A stretch of DNA of 64,000 nt from Escherichia phage ECML-606-1 (OL631484.1); one strand, 5' to 3'. Counted from the first letter of the stretch, positions 2,595 to 10,915 are shown. The notes: generated by a model from the letters alone, not told the origin. A program made the numbers and translations.

Positions 2595-3479
2595 TTAGCC
2601 TCTTTGTTGTAAGGAAATATCGCTCAGAAAGCGATGCACCCAAGCAGCCGCCTCGGATGGCGACATACTAAAGTTTGCGGCGCAGTATTGCGCCAGACCT
2701 TCTTCTGAGGTCAGGTAATCGGCGGTGATAGCACCGGAGATTAACGCGACGCTCAGCTGGTCACGGAACTCGTAATAGCTGATCGGCTGGTTGCCGCCCG
2801 TATCAAGCGACTGCACACCAAAGGCACCGCCACCAGTCAGCTGGCTCATATCGCTGCAATAAGACGCCTCCAGCGCCTTGCTCAGCACGATCCCGCCCAT
2901 GGATTTGGTCAGGGTGCCGATAGGAGACAGGGAGGCTGTGCGCAGATGTTGGTTAACTGGCGTCTGGGACAGGGCGATATTCGTCCAGCGGACTTTATCG
3001 ACCATTGTGACTTTTTGCTGGGTTTCCGGGTCTACCTGCACGCTTTTAGCGAGCACGGCACCACCGACAGAAGGGTACCAGCGCTGAGGCGGATTAAGCT
3101 GCGTCATTGATTCCCAGACCATGTTTGCATTCTCAGCCATCGGGCCAGTGCCCTCATACAGCTGCGCTTTTACAAACGTGGTGTTGCCATCGATCTTGAC
3201 ATCGACCGGGCGACCAATTTCGTAGCTTTTGGCTTCTTTGAGCGACATCCCCAGCTTTTGCCCGATAACGGTAAAGTGGTCAATGTCGATGTTACCGAAC
3301 TTTAAAAACAGGTCGGTACTCTCAGCGAGGGCCTTAGCCATGATCTTCTCATTCGTCTGGTCGAGCCCTTCATTGGACGCCTCCAGAAAGATAAAACGCT
3401 TCCCGCCCTCGGCTTTCGCGTGGGCTTTGAGCATCATATCCATACGGATAAGGTTGTCGGTATTCTCGGTGTCGATCAT
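2595..3479 (-). CDS. head-associated protein of unknown function
   Basis: 294 aa; C-terminal segment DMSQLTGGGAFGVQSLDTG echoes capsid residues 47-62; ATG at 3479. Confidence 0.4.
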   Translation of the reverse strand: MIDTENTDNLIRMDMMLKAHAKAEGGKRFIFLEASNEGLDQTNEKIMAKALAESTDLFLKFGNIDIDHFTVIGQKLGMSLKEAKSYEIGRPVDVKIDGNTTFVKAQLYEGTGPMAENANMVWESMTQLNPPQRWYPSVGGAVLAKSVQVDPETQQKVTMVDKVRWTNIALSQTPVNQHLRTASLSPIGTLTKSMGGIVLSKALEASYCSDMSQLTGGGAFGVQSLDTGGNQPISYYEFRDQLSVALISGAITADYLTSEEGLAQYCAANFSMSPSEAAAWVHRFLSDISLQQRG

Positions 3480-4898: not shown

Positions 4899-6653
4899 TT
4901 ACAGGTCGGGCAGACCAAACGATTTGTAGAGCCCTTCCTCGTCGAGGTTCTGCAATGTGTTATGCAGCTCATCGAATTTTTTCTTATTGTCGGCTTGCAG
5001 CTGCTCCTGCTCGGCCTGCTGCTGTGCAGCTGCGTCGGCGTCGTCAGGGTTGGCAGGATCAGCGCCCAGCTCCTCGCCCGGCTGCTGTAGCTCGGCCTGC
5101 TGCGCCATCTGCTCGGCCTGAATATCAGCGTTGACCTTAGCCATATAAGGCTGCATCGAAACGCTGTTAAGCGGGGAGTTGGCCCAGTCTTCTTTGATTT
5201 CTTCCCAGTTGCGAGCGCGGCGTGCTTCGTTGACGGTAAGGAGCGTTTTCTCCTCGTCCCACGCCTGCTTCGGATCCTTCTCATCCAGACCTGTCCAGCG
5301 GAACACGTACTTATCTGAGAAGTCGGAAATGATGTAATCGGTGAATAAGTCCTCAAAGTGCGACAGCAGCGGTCGCAGGCCCTTATCCTTCGAGTTGATC
5401 AGCTTCTCCTCCGTGTCACTGCCGGACAGCGAACTGGTACCAGCAGTGAAGGATTCGAAGTTGATCTCGTCCGGGGCGATGCCATAAATAGCGCAGATGA
5501 TCGCGGTTAAGAACGTCATCCATTTGGCAAACATGATCTCGTTAACGTCTACGCCAAAGTTTTCAAATTTCGCCGTGGATTCCGAAGTTTTGGAAACCAT
5601 GACGGGCAATGTCCATGCGTTATTGATGCCCTTCACCATGCTATTCCAGTACCGCTTAAAGGAGTTGAGATCCTCGGTAGAATAGTCGCCGGAGAGATGG
5701 AGCAGACCTTTCGGGATGGCGTTCGAGTCGAAATACTTCTGGTTGTACGTCATGGCGTTCAGGAAGCCCGTGACGGTGTTTACCAGCAGCTCAGTTTCGC
5801 TCATCCCGTAACCTCCGTTCAGCACATCGGTGCGGGTGTTGCGCGGAACATAGATCAGGTCGTTGTAGGTGTAAGCGGTGCGGATGTTCCCCTGCACCAC
5901 CTGTAAAGCAAAAATCTCATCATCGCCCTTGTAGCCGTCCTCAGTACAGAGGCGGATCGTGGCACCATCGACGGCATAAAGCCCGTCCATGCCTAGCGAG
6001 CGGTTTTTCTTGAATTCGGTCTCAATCGGCGCGGAGTCCATCACCAGCGAGTCGCGCACCAGCTTGCTCATGAAGCCTGAGAAGTTATCGCGCTTGAGGC
6101 GAGCACGCACGCGGGGGTTACTCTCCCAGCCGCAGTTTTGCATGAACATTTGCAGCGCGTTGATGGAGTCCTGCTCAGGCTTCGCCAGCCGCTGTGAGCC
6201 ATTCTGCTCTTTCAAGCGAATCTGGAAGCCGGGGCCCACGCCTTTCTCACTGGCGCGGCAGAAGCGTTTGATCTGGCGGATGCGGGTCATCACCACCGCC
6301 GACAGGATTGGCGTCTTGTCCACCATGTAGCGCATGGCATCAAAGCCAAAGTTTGTCGGACGCTCATACCAGTCTCCCAGAATCTGCACCTGACGGTCAT
6401 CCAGCCAGACAGACTGCATACCTTCTTTCTTGCCCTCGCGGACAGCCTGAGAAGGGTAATCGACCAGTGTATTTTTCTGGAGGGACTTGTAAAATTCCTG
6501 ATCAGCATATGACTGGGCAATATGCTGAATCAGCGGAGCCAGATCCGGCACGCTGGAAGGCATTGCAGCTTTCTGCGCTTGCGCCATCGCATCCTGCTGT
6601 TCGTCGGCAGGCGCGGCAGGGTTGTGCGCGGTTTGGATGGCGTTGTCAGACAT
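4899..6653 (-). CDS. portal protein (putative)
   Basis: about 585 aa between terminase and MuF-like gene; ATG at 6653 has AAAGG SD; longest ORF extends to TTG at 6710. Confidence 0.5.
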   Translation of the reverse strand: MSDNAIQTAHNPAAPADEQQDAMAQAQKAAMPSSVPDLAPLIQHIAQSYADQEFYKSLQKNTLVDYPSQAVREGKKEGMQSVWLDDRQVQILGDWYERPTNFGFDAMRYMVDKTPILSAVVMTRIRQIKRFCRASEKGVGPGFQIRLKEQNGSQRLAKPEQDSINALQMFMQNCGWESNPRVRARLKRDNFSGFMSKLVRDSLVMDSAPIETEFKKNRSLGMDGLYAVDGATIRLCTEDGYKGDDEIFALQVVQGNIRTAYTYNDLIYVPRNTRTDVLNGGYGMSETELLVNTVTGFLNAMTYNQKYFDSNAIPKGLLHLSGDYSTEDLNSFKRYWNSMVKGINNAWTLPVMVSKTSESTAKFENFGVDVNEIMFAKWMTFLTAIICAIYGIAPDEINFESFTAGTSSLSGSDTEEKLINSKDKGLRPLLSHFEDLFTDYIISDFSDKYVFRWTGLDEKDPKQAWDEEKTLLTVNEARRARNWEEIKEDWANSPLNSVSMQPYMAKVNADIQAEQMAQQAELQQPGEELGADPANPDDADAAAQQQAEQEQLQADNKKKFDELHNTLQNLDEEGLYKSFGLPDL

Positions 6654-6728
6654 ACGGTTAACCTTTGCAAAGTAGTTCGCAGAGAGTGACATCACGACAT
6701 CACGACGCAAAATAATTTAAATACCCTC

Positions 6729-6757
6729 TTGCTATCATCTTTTTTGCGTGCTTTAAT
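6729..6757 (+). promoter_or_regulatory. sigma70-like promoter TTGCTA-N17-TTTAAT driving the plus-strand tRNA island
   Basis: hexamers at 6729-6734 and 6752-6757 with 17-nt spacer. Confidence 0.4.
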
Positions 6758-7098
6758 CCATCCCGTAGCGCTGATTGGGATGTCTTTCGAAATTGCGTTT
6801 TCATTTTCTGTCAATGTCAGTTATGGGACGGAAGACATCAACCAATGAGCGCTTGGCTTTGACTACTCAATACGGATTTGTCGTTATTTCGCGTATACGG
6901 TTGTCAAGTGCTCAGCCATGTTCTAACCCGCGCAGTATTGCTAAAGCCCAAGTGGGGCCGTCTTCAATACTCGCGGCAGTGAACGGCGAATGGCAAGCTA
7001 CTGGCCTGACTTTCCTTCTTTCAAAGCAAAGATTGAAGTGGGCGGCGTCGGCTCATTGAAACAACGGCGCAATCGGGTGAAAATCCCGTTCAAATTCT

Positions 7099-7228
7099 AC
7101 CGATTAGTGACGATGAAAGGGGCCTTCGCGATCCCCAAGTAATTGGCAGGTTGCCTTAGGTCACAAGCCGCAGCGGAGATTGCAAGCGAAGCTGTAGGAT
7201 AGAGGTTCGACTCCTCTGATCGGTGCCA
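7099..7228 (+). ncRNA. atypically long tRNA-like element (about 130 nt)
   Basis: 7-bp acceptor pairing ACCGATT/GATCGGT, T-arm AGAGG-TTCGACT-CCTCT, discriminator and CCA at 7226-7228; about 55 nt too long for a tRNA. Confidence 0.3.
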
Positions 7229-7370
7229 TTTTTGCGGTTACACAAGTGTGCAGATAGCATGACGAGGAAAGGCGTTCCGTGCGACGCTGGAGGCGATGGT
7301 AGGGTAAGCACCCTCTCCTATGACTCACGACTCAACCTCTCCGGGTAACGACCGGAGCCGCAAAACAGAT

Positions 7371-7494
7371 TGAAGCGTAGCTCATTGGCAGAGCAGCACA
7401 CGGATGCGGATCCGCGCCAGCACAAGGCTCCTTCGGGGTGTGCCGCTGGCTCCAGAAGTGTATGTAACTGGTTCGATCCCAGTCGCTTCAACCA
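7371..7494 (+). ncRNA. atypically long tRNA-like element (about 124 nt)
   Basis: perfect acceptor stem TGAAGCG/CGCTTCA, canonical D-arm (GCTC-ATTGGCA-GAGC), T-arm ACTGG-TTCGATC-CCAGT and CCA; candidate anticodon stem halves GCACA/TGTGC separated by 38 nt. Confidence 0.35.
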
Positions 7495-7498
7495 TTTT

Positions 7499-7574
7499 GA
7501 TTCTGTAGCTACAGCGGTAGAGCGGCGCACTGTTAATGCGCGGGTCGCTGGTTCGAATCCAGCCAGAATCGCCA
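7499..7574 (+). tRNA. tRNA-Asn (anticodon GTT)
   Basis: hand-folded 76-nt cloverleaf: acceptor GATTCTG/CAGAATC, anticodon stem GCGCA/TGCGC with loop CTGTTAA, T-loop TTCGAAT, encoded CCA. Confidence 0.9.
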
Positions 7575-7740
7575 GAGTAATCATGGGTTGGTTACAAGCC
7601 TGTCAGAAGGCAATCCCGCCCCGGCTTCTCCTCAGGTCGCCGGGGCACCTTCCCAGAATTAAGGGCAGTCCCTTACTTCTGCGTCGGTAAGAGCGGAGAA
7701 TCAGGAAATTTCGACCGTAGTACCAAAACATTGCTTCCTT

Positions 7741-7766
7741 GCCGCCCCCGTGGGCGGCTTTTTTTT
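7741..7766 (+). terminator. rho-independent terminator after tRNA island
   Basis: GCCGCCCCCGTGGGCGGC hairpin followed by T8. Confidence 0.7.
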
Positions 7767-7783
7767 AGCCTGAGGAGTAACCC

Positions 7784-8299
7784 ATGAATATCTTTCGCCG
7801 CATCCTGAATAAAATCTTTGGCATCCCACCAGTGCCACCAGAGCCGAAGATCGAGCCGCCAAAGTTCGGCGGTGATTTCCCGCGCCCGGTCTCCGTCACC
7901 ATGAAGGCTACCCAGACCGTCAAGCAGGATCCGATGGCTGCGGCGGTCGCCCGTGCAAAAAGGGACGCGGAGAAAACTGCCGTAAAAGGCAACGTCAGCA
8001 GCGCGAGCAGCAGCTCAACACAGCGCCCATTTATATCCCTGTTAGATCCGACTCATCCGCTCTATCCTTTTAATGGCGTGCGGGATGATGATGCAGCCAC
8101 TCAGCACCGCGTACAGCATCAGGACGCGACGACGATCAGCGATACCACGCACCGACACGTCGCCAGCCATTCTGAGCCAGTGCGTAGCCATAGCTCGCAC
8201 AGCAGCAGCCATTCAAGCCCAAGCTATGACCATAGCCCCAGCCATGACAGCAGCCCATCCTATGACAGCTCACCGTCACACCACGACAGCAGCTGGTAA
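7784..8299 (+). CDS. hypothetical protein with Ser/His-rich repetitive C-terminus
   Basis: 171 aa, GAGGAG SD, C-terminal SPSYD/SPSHD repeats; only plus-strand gene inside the structural module. Confidence 0.5.
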   Translation: MNIFRRILNKIFGIPPVPPEPKIEPPKFGGDFPRPVSVTMKATQTVKQDPMAAAVARAKRDAEKTAVKGNVSSASSSSTQRPFISLLDPTHPLYPFNGVRDDDAATQHRVQHQDATTISDTTHRHVASHSEPVRSHSSHSSSHSSPSYDHSPSHDSSPSYDSSPSHHDSSW

Positions 8300-10915
8300 T
8301 TAATCGTCACCTTTCGAAATGAAGCCGGAGCAGCCAATATCCTCCGGCTTCACCTGCATCATGATCTCATGGCAGGATCTGGTCTCCGGGTCGTAGTTCA
8401 CACAGCGCCCGCAAACATCCCCGCGATACTTCACGTTGTTCACCTCATCCATGTAGCTCACCAGCGTCTGATCGACGCCGATATCCAGCGGGCTCAGTCG
8501 CTCGATCTTCACCTGCGGGGCATCCGGCAGAATAAACGTACTGGTGCCATGGGCGCGACTCCATGCGACATCGCACAGCAGGTTTGCGTAGGAGAAGTGG
8601 GGATCGATGCCGATTTTCTTCACGCTGCGCTTGTACTGGTTCGTTTCCTCGTCCTTCTCAGCCACCAGCGCCGTTTTGGTGAAGTGCGTGAACATTACCG
8701 GGGCCACGGCTTCCACGCGCGTGACGCCCTTCTCACGAATCTCCTGCACCAACCCCTGAGGGTCTGGGATGAGGCAGATTGGCTCGTCGGCAGTGAAGCG
8801 GGCCATTGAGACCTGCATACACTTATACTGGTCAATGCGGACGGTGTAGCGATCCTGTTCGTTCTCGTCGGTGCGCACATCGGACTTGTCCAGCTTCATG
8901 CTGTCATTCCACTGGATCATGCCATCCGCCACGGTGCCGAAGCTGTTACAGATGAATACCCGGCCTTTGTGACGGTTGGCGAAGCGCTTGGCGTCGTTGT
9001 AGTTCGGGTTGATTTCCACCACGCAGCAAGCCACGCCGTACTGGTTCATCAGCTCGCTACAGCGGGCAAACGGATCCTCGCTGTAAATCATTTCGATGTG
9101 GACAATTGCTTGGTGGCCGGAGGGCAGTCGCTCCTTGATAACCACCACGTTAAACTGGCCCATCTGGTCAATACCCATGTAGCAGTTATCCGCGCGGGAC
9201 TTCCACTGCACGCCAAAACGCAGGCCATGCTTAACGCAATTCGCCAGGTGTTCCAGCGTTACCGGAACCAGCGACGGATCGAGGAACGGCTTGCCCAGCT
9301 TACGGTTATAGAAGTTTTTCATATCCGTAGCGTTGTTGAAGGCGGAAATAATCTCGCCGGGGCTGATTGTCGGTGACAGGAACTGCGGGAAGTGCGCCGA
9401 CCGGATGCACATTTCCCCTTCCTCATTCTCCGGCGCATCCGGGATCCATTCCCCGCGCTGCGTGTCCTCAATCCATCCTCCGCAGCTGTAGCAGACATAT
9501 CGGTGGCGTCTGGTGTCCGGGTCGTACTTAATGCACTGCGGGAAATAGTCATCCAGCGGTTTCTTTTCGAGGCAGTGCGGGCATTCGGTATGGAAACGGT
9601 ACTGGGATCCCAGCTTGTACCAGTGGTGGATATCGGAGTCGGGCCAGTTGGCGGTGGAGCCCATCAGGCTGTAACGGATCGGGGATGCAGATAGACGCTC
9701 GCGCGTTTTCTCCATCTGCTCCAGTGACATTTCCTGCACCTCATCGAAGCTCAGGACATCCATCGGGATGGATTCGGTAGTCGCGCGGCCCGATGTCCAG
9801 CTGAATACAAACATCGCCTCACCGATGCGACGGGTACGCACGTTACCCTCACCTTTCTTGCGACCGCCGCCTTTCTCATCGTCCTGCACCATCAGCGCAT
9901 GTACCTCAGGTACGGTGCGCACAATCGGCATGAAGCGCTCGGAGGACTTGATCCCCGCCAGCGCGGCATCCGGCAAGAACATGCCGATAGTCATCGGCTG
10001 GAAGCGCAGGCCAAGGTAAATAACAGCGAGCATTTCCATGACGGTAAAGCCCACCTGCGCACACTTCATCAGCACCAGCGTTTTGCGGTATGCCTCCTCG
10101 ACGGTGCTGGGGATCTGGTCATAAATCCACGCCATCGCCGGGCGGTTGTCCAGCTTGAACGGGCGACCATCCACTTTGAGGCCCGTTTCGCCCAGCCGGA
10201 TGCACCACTCCAGAAAGGTCTCGTTTGGCTTGAGGATTTTCTGCGAGGCGGTCAGGACAAAGGTCGTATCGAGGAATTCAGCATCGTAGCGCTGGCGCTT
10301 CTCATCCCCGGTCGTGTTGTCCATTTTCTCCAGGAATGCCGCGTCGAGATTATGGCGGTTGGTCTCGGTCGGCACGCGGCGTCGGAACCAGTCAGGATCC
10401 AGCTCGGCCTCCATCCACAGGCGATAAAAGTCGTGATTCTTCCCGTAGGCACCGGACAGGAACCATGCACTGCCGTGGTACTCGCGCAGGCACTCAGCCA
10501 GCGTGTCACCCCAGATCTGCATGAAGTTGTAAATCTCGCGCACGTCATCAATGATCATCAGGCCATACTGCCCATTAACCTCTTTCAGGCTGTCAGCCGC
10601 GTAAAGGTCAATGTACTGGCCCGATAGCAGCGTGATGCGCCTGCTGGTTGAGCTCTTGATGAGGGGATCGATGGCCTGTACGATCCGCGTGCGAACCTCC
10701 ATAAGGTCTTTGTACGTAGCGCTCATCCACATCGCCGGGGCAGGGTTATTCATGATGCCCTGTTTCCCAGCCACCAGCGCCTCTATGCCAAGCGTTGTTT
10801 TTCCTGCCTTCTCGCCCATGGCAATAACGTTAAAACGCGCCGCACGGTCGATACAGACCTGCAACGCGTCATTGAGAATGGGCAGCTTAATTTTAACGGT
10901 CTTTTGGCGTGCCAT
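8300..10915 (-). CDS. terminase large subunit, lambda GpA-like, with N-terminal P-loop extension
   Basis: 871 aa; KCAQVGFT (res 284-291) resembles the gpA KSARVGYS P-loop; additional Walker A GEKAGKTT (34-41) and Walker B LMIIDDV (119-125); C-terminal Cys clusters; ATG at 10915 with AAGGA SD. Confidence 0.65.
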   Translation of the reverse strand: MARQKTVKIKLPILNDALQVCIDRAARFNVIAMGEKAGKTTLGIEALVAGKQGIMNNPAPAMWMSATYKDLMEVRTRIVQAIDPLIKSSTSRRITLLSGQYIDLYAADSLKEVNGQYGLMIIDDVREIYNFMQIWGDTLAECLREYHGSAWFLSGAYGKNHDFYRLWMEAELDPDWFRRRVPTETNRHNLDAAFLEKMDNTTGDEKRQRYDAEFLDTTFVLTASQKILKPNETFLEWCIRLGETGLKVDGRPFKLDNRPAMAWIYDQIPSTVEEAYRKTLVLMKCAQVGFTVMEMLAVIYLGLRFQPMTIGMFLPDAALAGIKSSERFMPIVRTVPEVHALMVQDDEKGGGRKKGEGNVRTRRIGEAMFVFSWTSGRATTESIPMDVLSFDEVQEMSLEQMEKTRERLSASPIRYSLMGSTANWPDSDIHHWYKLGSQYRFHTECPHCLEKKPLDDYFPQCIKYDPDTRRHRYVCYSCGGWIEDTQRGEWIPDAPENEEGEMCIRSAHFPQFLSPTISPGEIISAFNNATDMKNFYNRKLGKPFLDPSLVPVTLEHLANCVKHGLRFGVQWKSRADNCYMGIDQMGQFNVVVIKERLPSGHQAIVHIEMIYSEDPFARCSELMNQYGVACCVVEINPNYNDAKRFANRHKGRVFICNSFGTVADGMIQWNDSMKLDKSDVRTDENEQDRYTVRIDQYKCMQVSMARFTADEPICLIPDPQGLVQEIREKGVTRVEAVAPVMFTHFTKTALVAEKDEETNQYKRSVKKIGIDPHFSYANLLCDVAWSRAHGTSTFILPDAPQVKIERLSPLDIGVDQTLVSYMDEVNNVKYRGDVCGRCVNYDPETRSCHEIMMQVKPEDIGCSGFISKGDD

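Follow-up and report, generated by a model that had tools for sequence, protein, structure and literature searches.

Candidate tRNA-framed RNAs with structured inserts beside a tRNA-Asn gene of Escherichia phage ECML-606-1

We analyzed a stretch of 64,000 nucleotides from Escherichia phage ECML-606-1 (OL631484.1; the whole of this stretch is called the window), in which three oversized tRNA-like elements, named E1, Emid and E2, directly precede a canonical tRNA-Asn gene. In the reading that we favour, though with about as much doubt as confidence, these elements would be phage "tRNA-chassis" RNAs, in which a tRNA-derived frame carries a structured insert as the working part. The frame (acceptor stem, T arm, an encoded or addable CCA and, in E2, a D arm) would let the RNA be excised from a polycistronic transcript and kept stable, and a structured domain of 40-70 nt, which replaces the anticodon arm and the variable region, would act as effector. 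Covariation identifies this domain as a pseudoknot in Emid; E2 is predicted to share the topology, and E1 may have a looser version of it. The original prediction, made from the sequence alone, had left several options for these genes. "Expanded tRNA-derived RNAs" is the one that the evidence favours: the block is constrained, and the Emid family is supported by covariation, with an insert that is more conserved than the frame.

Emid was not part of the original prediction and lies between the two elements reported there; it was overlooked because its T-like loop reads GTAACGA. The acceptor stem pairs TTTGCGG (7231-7237) with CCGCAAA (7358-7364), the D-like hairpin is degenerate and the T-like arm is CCGG-GTAACGA-CCGG (7341-7355). 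The core holds helix Sa (CATGA 7258-7262 with TCACG 7325-7329), the motif TGACGAGGAAAGG (7260-7272), hairpin H1 (7272-7287) and helix P2 (GGAGGCGA 7289-7296 with TCAACCTCT 7332-7340). Sa and P2 cross each other, and the core is therefore a pseudoknot.

The central part of Emid matches unannotated DNA in 38 phage records, which comprise some, though not all, Kuttervirus, Taipeivirus and Agtrevirus phages (Ackermannviridae) together with the 42-kb Pectobacterium phage Amona; tRNA genes adjoin all of the homologues. In those phages the T arm of the homologues is canonical (GTCGG-TTCGAWT-CCGAC), the acceptor stem has 8 bp and a D-like hairpin is present; their alignment reveals a near-invariant core: GACGAGGAWAGG, a hairpin, and then ...GATGGT...CACC.TCTCC...GACTC...CTCAA. 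A covariance model (R1) built from five family sequences of other phages finds the Emid of the window with 76 bits (E 5e-20), which places it in the family, and also detects two further members in metagenome contigs.

Covariation was counted over eight sequences and 42 pairs, with 500 shuffles and slid alignments as controls. Pairing is seen in 97.2% of the cells, and 15 of the 42 pairs have changed on both sides; none of the shuffles is as good, and the slid controls reach at most 49% pairing. Compensatory changes are found in the acceptor stem, the D-like hairpin, H1, the T arm and both crossing helices of the core. The first crossing helix, which lies outside the R1 model, changes from GCAGA/TCTGC to CGTGA/TCACG in the clade of the window phage, and the second from GCUGRUGA/UCAAYCAGC to GGAGGCGA/UCAACCUCU in the window and to GUUGAUGA/UCAAUCAAC in the locus that we label L191. 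As both crossing helices are supported, the Emid core is a pseudoknot that occupies the positions of the anticodon arm and the variable region in the tRNA frame. In the window the T loop of Emid is non-canonical and the D hairpin vestigial, but the core is nearly invariant; since the frame has decayed and the core has been kept, selection acts on the insert and not on the frame. Among 100,044 reference genomes the core pattern yields a single chance match, in a coding region. A small open reading frame or tag in the Emid core and in the 3' RNA (7575-7740) was also considered and rejected, as no conserved frame is seen by eye.

Around the Emid homologues the noncoding island of the Ackermannviridae is a mosaic. 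Phage pSal-SNUABM-02 (L006 2640-2712 and 2911-3387) has an extra tRNA-like element of ~72 nt without anticodon arm, and an HNH endonuclease gene is inserted downstream. In vB_SenM-2 (L053 296-330) the 5' end of the Emid homologue is replaced by that of this ~72-nt element and the acceptor pairing is broken. Upstream of the homologue in Vi01 a candidate long tRNA-like element is seen by eye (L004 2225-2320); its ends are GCGTGAT/ATCACGC, its D arm (GCTC/GAGC) is canonical and it has an extended arm (CCCC...GGGG).

E1 and E2 had been put forward as two overlong tRNA-like elements with 7-bp acceptor stems, T arms, a discriminator and CCA, and both reading and a script bear this out (130 and 124 nt). 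A strict signature (5-bp T stem, TTCRA T loop, 7-bp acceptor with its strands 60-200 nt apart, NCCA) gives three matches in the window (E1, E2 and tRNA-Asn), against a mean of 0.005 per dinucleotide-preserving shuffle (one match in 200 shuffles); the tRNA-end signature of E1 and E2 is far above chance. Both elements have canonical tRNA ends (7-bp acceptor, discriminator, CCA and TTCRA T arm). Emid has the acceptor, but departs from these ends in its T-like loop and in the ACA at its 3' end. A clean tRNA anticodon arm (5-bp stem, 7-nt loop, U33 and purine 37) in a gene of 70-95 nt is found in none of the three, which measure 124-135 nt.

Of the detectors named in the original prediction, ARAGORN in its standard mode and Rfam (E up to 10) both accept only the tRNA-Asn at 7499-7574 in this region, and neither ARAGORN nor the Rfam tRNA model RF00005 at its gathering score reports E1, Emid or E2. 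The Rfam scan accordingly gives no family beyond tRNA-Asn even at permissive thresholds; ARAGORN behaves the same way in the standard run, and its intron mode adds a forced call on a copy of E2 (see below). That the neighbouring tRNA-Asn(GTT) is normal, as had been stated, is clear from the ARAGORN call and an Rfam score of 61.5 bits.

In E2 the acceptor TGAAGCG (7371-7377) pairs with CGCTTCA (7484-7490), followed by discriminator A and CCA (7491-7494). The T arm is ACTGG-TTCGATC-CCAGT (7467-7483), and the D arm (GCTC-ATTGGCA-GAGC, 7380-7394) is canonical, in agreement with the original prediction. The anticodon-stem halves proposed there, GCACA and TGTGC, are present exactly 38 nt apart, with the GCGGATCCGC palindrome and a CTCC-TTCG-GGGG hairpin between them, but they represent just one of two pairing options: S1 (GCACA 7396-7400) pairs with either TGTGC (7439-7443) or GTGT (7458-7461), and the unconstrained minimum-energy fold uses the latter. 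This fold (-45.5 kcal/mol) is a complete cloverleaf with a 4-bp GCAC/GUGU stem, a 58-nt insert of two hairpins and a 5-nt variable loop before the T arm, against -39.3 kcal/mol when GCACA/UGUGC is forced as a nested pair. Further pairings are a hairpin at 7401-7414, S2 (GCCAGC 7416-7421 with GCTGGC 7445-7450) and the UUCG hairpin (7428-7438). As predicted from the single sequence, E2 can form a pseudoknot of the Emid topology. The D arm would be followed at once by stem 1 (GCACA/UGUGC); the other parts are an internal hairpin and stem 2 (GCCAGC/GCUGGC), the 3' strand of which begins one base after stem 1. Beyond the tRNA frame E2 and Emid have no sequence in common. The 5' half of E2 resembles the adjacent tRNA-Asn, which suggests an origin from a tRNA duplicate, and its covariance scores are like those of ordinary tRNAs (22.6 bits on R1, from the frame alone, and 38.9 bits on R2, a model of the class-b genes described below).

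In E1 the acceptor strands ACCGATT (7099-7105) and GATCGGT (7218-7224) pair with one T.G wobble, and the T arm AGAGG-TTCGACT-CCTCT (7201-7217) is followed by discriminator G and CCA (7225-7228). As E1 has no D arm, E2 alone is a full cloverleaf. A predicted stem (GTGAC 7107-7111 with GTCAC 7160-7164) encloses the motif TGACGATGAAAGG (7108-7120) and hairpins at 7119-7136 and 7145-7155. The hairpin loop CTTCGC (7124-7129) is complementary to GCGAAG (7186-7191), downstream of stem 1, and a pseudoknot in a looser version of the Emid topology is possible. A cloverleaf-constrained fold is at most 1.8 kcal/mol from the minimum-energy fold. The motif TGACGATGAAAGG has 12 of the 13 bases of the invariant TGACGAGGAAAGG of Emid, and both stand at the start of a 5-bp stem and are followed by a hairpin. 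A kink-turn reading of GAUGA/AG in E1 was rejected by eye (wrong strand polarity). In IMG/VR a motif-plus-T-arm pattern for E1 gives chance matches only, upstream of ordinary tRNAs.

The window is a segment of a tailed-phage genome whose core genes are ~98% identical to those of Enterobacter phage phiT5282EW (95.5 kb). In comparison with that phage the block at 7069-7783 has 2 substitutions in 715 nt (99.7% identity), against only 82-84% identity in the flanks (6711-7068 and 7784-8299, including orf171). Judged by these identities, the flanks mark a local hot spot of recombination or diversification. At 7259 the window has A where phiT5282EW and the IMG/VR contig L007 have G, by which an A x C mismatch in an Emid helix becomes a G-C pair. 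The region 7575-7740 has one substitution relative to phiT5282EW and no differences among the window, L007 and contig L009.

L007 carries the same cassette, and is the only one to do so among 39 related viral loci retrieved by means of the portal gene. In L009 (99% portal identity) precisely the promoter, E1, Emid and E2 are missing, whereas tRNA-Asn, the 3' RNA and the terminator are retained; at L009 5577-5680 (minus strand; corresponding to window 7040-7498) the place of the cassette is taken by ~95 nt of unrelated sequence that contains a long inverted repeat (ATATATCAATCTGCTGG...CCAGCAGATTGATAT). Given its presence in L007 and absence from L009, E1/Emid/E2 is an accessory cassette that is conserved where present. 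We found no integrase near the block.

The layout of the locus is given in Table 1. The plus-strand region 7060-7783, which holds all four RNA genes, is the sole long noncoding stretch of this part of the genome; a tail-fibre-like protein and a NUDIX protein are also encoded in the window. The spacers between E1, Emid, E2 and tRNA-Asn are just 1-5 nt long, with a T at -1 of each gene, and the arrangement is that of a polycistronic tRNA operon, which would be transcribed and processed accordingly. The site at 7056-7084 would serve as its promoter, with a predicted start ~8-14 nt upstream of E1, although one such site is also expected by chance in 6700-7900. For the 3' noncoding stretch Rfam gives sub-threshold matches at most and no family; it could be a small RNA of its own that goes with tRNA-Asn. 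Orf171 (171 aa) and a 94-aa open reading frame beside the block have no Pfam or PHROG match.

Table 1. Features of the tRNA-Asn locus and its surroundings (positions in the window)
Feature	Position	Strand	Description
Portal gene	4899-6710	minus	
Putative sigma-70-like promoter	7056-7084	plus	TTGAAA, 17-nt spacer, GAAAAT; sole promoter-like site in 6700-7900
E1	7099-7228	plus	130-nt tRNA-like RNA
Emid	7231-7365	plus	Third oversized tRNA-like RNA, between E1 and E2
E2	7371-7494	plus	124-nt cloverleaf; 38-58-nt insert replacing the anticodon loop
tRNA-Asn(GTT)	7499-7574	plus	Canonical, encoded CCA; 4 nt downstream of E2; ARAGORN; Rfam tRNA model 61.5 bits
3' noncoding stretch	7575-7740	plus	~166 nt with several GC-rich hairpins, between tRNA-Asn and terminator
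Intrinsic terminator	7741-7766	plus	GCCGCCC-CCGT-GGGCGGC, then T8; 7-bp all-GC stem; sole terminator-like site of the region
gpA-type large terminase gene	8300-10915	minus	

Under the chassis reading, which gains support from the close packing of these genes and a true tRNA between a single promoter and a single terminator, transcription would run from the promoter at 7056 to the terminator at 7741 and include tRNA-Asn. RNase P would then cut each 5' end and the 3' ends would be trimmed to the encoded CCA, as expected from tRNA-processing rules and from the 1-5-nt spacers. The mature RNAs of ~125-135 nt, unable to decode because they have no anticodon loop, would work by means of the insert, and the likeliest mode is that it binds a host or phage protein as decoy, sponge or adaptor in a Y-RNA-like manner; by analogy, protein binding is probably the function of the insert. 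As the cassette is accessory, a role in host range or counter-defence fits better than a core function. In the literature searched, we found no description of these elements or of short phage tRNA introns.

Several observations weigh against this reading. The 3' end of Emid reads ACA and not CCA. The Emid model R1 does not detect E1, and the 13-mer that these two have in common, if taken alone, has a p of ~0.02 by shuffling. For E1 and E2 no homologues were found outside three near-identical phages (the window, phiT5282EW and L007), so that their internal folds are single-sequence predictions: with blastn against phages, plasmids and E. coli genomes phiT5282EW alone matches (the plasmid and E. 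coli matches concern the tRNA-Asn of SSU5-like phage-plasmids, not E1/E2), and a pattern of the E2 frame gives no further homologue in IMG/VR. The very high conservation of the block could in part stem from recent recombination, its flanks being a mosaic hot spot. A search for a partner protein next to the block returned neighbours, including orf171, without informative domains. Finally, the fold energy of E1 is no better than that of shuffled sequences (z 0.22) and that of E2 only weakly better (z -1.4); the case is carried by the tRNA signature and by conservation, not by thermodynamics.

Part of the alternatives concerns other oversized tRNA genes. A generic pattern (tRNA D arm and T arm 55-85 nt apart) matches at least 120 loci in viral sequences, and among the matches listed the flanks form a 7-bp acceptor in 81, which indicates that oversized tRNA-framed genes are common. 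One group, class b, has ~31 unique sequences with an insert in the 5' strand of the anticodon stem that consists of a hairpin, 1-3 nt and ACAGCAA; many of them keep true anticodon loops, and to Rfam they score as tRNAs that carry a loop insertion. They stand upstream of a 480-aa DUF2828/DUF7788-VWA gene in 16 of 28 loci (at 140-960 nt on the same strand in 16 of 18 RNA-gene pairs), the product of which is called "Ro-like RNA-binding protein" in GenBank (709 phage records); the gene is missing from all 38 loci with other long tRNAs. Class-b genes, which may be tRNA-shaped Y RNAs, measure 110-130 nt, for example at L082 9783-9904, L088 11130-11246, L139 1561-2071, L153 710-1370, L154 78-529 and ~20 more. 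Separately, the viral contigs L056, L133, L149, L172, L144 and L065 hold tRNA genes with 30-50-nt inserts right after the anticodon (37/38; Tyr GTA, Ile GAT, Asn GTT and His GTG). In the tRNA array of the jumbo Erwinia phage Stratton (L003 2800-2919) an annotated "tRNA-Ile(aat)" of 120 nt has normal acceptor, D and T arms and 66 nt in place of the anticodon arm.

E1, Emid and E2 might accordingly be compared with Y RNAs, as partners of a Ro60/Rsr-type protein in which a tRNA-like module and a Ro-binding motif tether or gate an RNA-surveillance ring, although we consider this unlikely. The bacterial YrlA RNAs do combine a tRNA-like domain with a GNCGAAN0-1G motif (PMC4201824). GACGAUG in E1 and GACGAGG in Emid (invariant in the family) are each one mismatch away from that motif, but besides being inexact they lie, relative to the tRNA frame, on the side opposite to that in YrlA, and Rfam gives no Y RNA match. 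The link between class b and the Ro-like gene in other phages (16 of 28 loci against 0 of 38) would speak for it; here tblastn with a phage Ro-like protein finds no Ro-like/TROVE gene in the window or in ~96% of the phiT5282EW genome, nor does Pfam find one among the neighbours. With class b, E2 has in common a standard tRNA frame, a 40-60-nt insert at the anticodon arm and a place in a phage tRNA array, and its hairpin is followed by CGC and CAGCA in a similar layout. Nonetheless, CAGCA occurs twice in E2 and is hence weak evidence, the R2 model scores E2 no higher than ordinary tRNAs, and the true anticodon loops, the invariant hairpin-ACAGCAA and the Ro-like gene link of class b are absent from all three elements. 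E2, with no ACAGCAA, no clear anticodon loop and no Ro-like gene, is thus not a class-b gene, and by analogy the Y RNA parallel would be functional at most, not one of membership.

A distinctly unlikely alternative, raised as "unusual short introns" in the original prediction, is that these are intron-containing tRNA genes whose inserts are removed to leave functional tRNAs of ~75 nt. The frame of E2 is a perfect cloverleaf with a 5' half like tRNA-Asn, and viral contigs commonly hold long tRNA genes in which a genuine anticodon loop is kept next to a 30-60-nt insert. By eye, the spliced loop of E2 could be UUCGGGG (CGG, Pro-like) or CUCCAGA (CCA, Trp-like), and ARAGORN in intron mode calls the identical E2 copy of L007 a tRNA-Arg(tcg) with a 29-nt intron at position 32. 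These at least three anticodon assignments are mutually incompatible and none has a clean stem-loop context, however, and the ARAGORN call is forced: at other loci the same mode yields absurd "introns" of 400-1800 nt. E1 and Emid lack any candidate anticodon loop, and no part of the Emid-family members is conserved as strongly as the insert, contrary to expectation for an intron. The statement that the inserts are too short for group I introns holds, as they fall far below that size and Rfam matches no ribozyme (a bulge-helix-bulge motif was not formally searched for). Enterobacteria are not known to have a tRNA-splicing endonuclease or any other system that could splice such inserts. Splicing is therefore unlikely.

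It might also be argued that the elements are related to transfer-messenger RNA (tmRNA), either as pieces of a split trans-translation RNA (tRNA-like domain plus pseudoknot) or as a mimic; we hold this to be very unlikely. An acceptor stem and T arm without anticodon arm, joined to a pseudoknot, indeed recall the tRNA-like domain and PK1 of tmRNA, and this combination is found in Emid by covariation and is predicted for E1 and E2. The hallmark G3:U70 is absent, though (3/70 pairs are C-G in E1, A-T in E2 and T-A in Emid), the length is ~130 nt against ~360 nt, and neither ARAGORN nor Rfam finds a tmRNA. Directly downstream of the Emid homologue, the Ackermannviridae have a promoter and an RNA that carries a tmRNA-like tag frame (ANDNTFLAVA*, ANDDVVLMAA*), and the Rfam model tmRNA_permuted matches weakly (26 bits) across the homologue and this tag element. 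Neither a tag-like frame nor a match to the element was found in the window or in phiT5282EW. As the tag element occurs in 734 phage records against 38 for the Emid family, and is absent from the window phage, the two are not coupled. A distant relative of the window phage, L031, does have a true permuted tmRNA.

The tag element (L004 2763-2894, L002 ~3300-3345 and L052 ~842-875) is an unannotated feature in its own right, with the frames ANDNTFLAVA*, ANDDVVLMAA* and ANDNQYLAVA*. Its 734 phage records belong to Ackermannviridae, Felixounavirus, N4-like phages and others, and it is also present in SSU5-like phage-plasmids, in one of which the ANDNQYLAVA* stretch, homologous to the Ackermannviridae element, lies upstream of tRNA-Asn. 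ARAGORN calls no tmRNA in the tag element, and we found no description of it, or of a tmRNA in Ackermannviridae, in the literature searched. The tmRNA of L031 (6696-7096; 64% portal identity, 62% GC) is of the permuted two-piece type, with the tag ANDSSFLMAANA* and an acceptor with G3:U70, and sits in a 1.9-kb noncoding island beside an initiator-like tRNA-Met.

That the elements are functionless tRNA pseudogenes or attachment-site remnants ("decayed tRNA/att remnants" in the original prediction) is extremely improbable: the hot spot (flanks of 82-84% against 98% genome-wide), the presence or absence of the cassette between near-identical phages and the rejection by standard tRNA finders would suit it, but the acceptor and T stems are perfect, the encoded CCA ends are intact, the block has a putative promoter of its own and only 2 substitutions in 715 nt, while the flanks right beside it diverge by 16-18%, compensatory changes accompany the conservation of the Emid family in unrelated phages, and an integrase was not found nearby.

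By analogy, the nearest precedents for the chassis reading are RNAC and RNAD of phage T4 and the bacterial YrlA Y RNAs. RNAC (species 1, 139 nt) and RNAD (species 2, 119 nt) are, like E1, Emid and E2, RNAs of 120-140 nt that are co-transcribed in a phage tRNA cluster, and the 3' terminal stem of RNAC is immediately preceded by a canonical T arm (CCGGG-TTCGAAT-CCCGG). Both are made from the T4 tRNA cluster and their role is still unknown (PMC3014915). They differ in that R1 finds nothing at the T4 locus, that there is no sequence similarity either, that the terminal stem of RNAC is imperfect with no encoded CCA, and that the pseudoknotted core is shown for Emid only. YrlA RNAs likewise join a tRNA mimic (T arm, D arm and acceptor-like stem) to a protein-binding module, and that of M. 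smegmatis is cut by RNase P and receives CCA (PMC4201824). In contrast to our elements, YrlA ends at the position of the anticodon stem, its topology is permuted, and it is encoded within a few kb of rsr, a gene not found here; the Ro motif is only approximated in E1 and Emid and there is no Rfam match.

That a tRNA frame can give processing by tRNA enzymes and stability to a foreign structured RNA is familiar from engineered tRNA scaffolds and from the tRNA-miRNA chimeras of gammaherpesvirus MHV68. These are artificial and eukaryotic viral systems, and the likeness to the phage RNAs is one of analogy.

More tentatively, and with rather more doubt than belief, we propose that E1, Emid and E2 sample a broad unannotated class of phage RNAs that use the tRNA frame as a chassis for pseudoknotted effectors binding host proteins, with the Emid core as a new protein-binding motif exchanged between unrelated phages in tRNA-cluster cassettes. 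Such effectors may, for example, serve as decoys that draw off defence or surveillance factors sensing tRNA ends or elbows, or as counterparts of Y RNAs that work without Ro.

Annotation of phage tRNA clusters usually stops at the genes that tRNA finders accept; as seen here, such clusters also hide conserved, structured, tRNA-framed RNAs. Members of the Emid family are found in Ackermannviridae that serve in phage therapy, in a Pectobacterium phage and in this Enterobacter-type phage of 95 kb. If these RNAs act as decoys or adaptors, they would represent a new layer of phage-host conflict and would open a way into the role of T4 RNAC and RNAD, which has been a puzzle for 50 years. Near-identical phages with and without the cassette form a natural pair, which makes the question directly testable.

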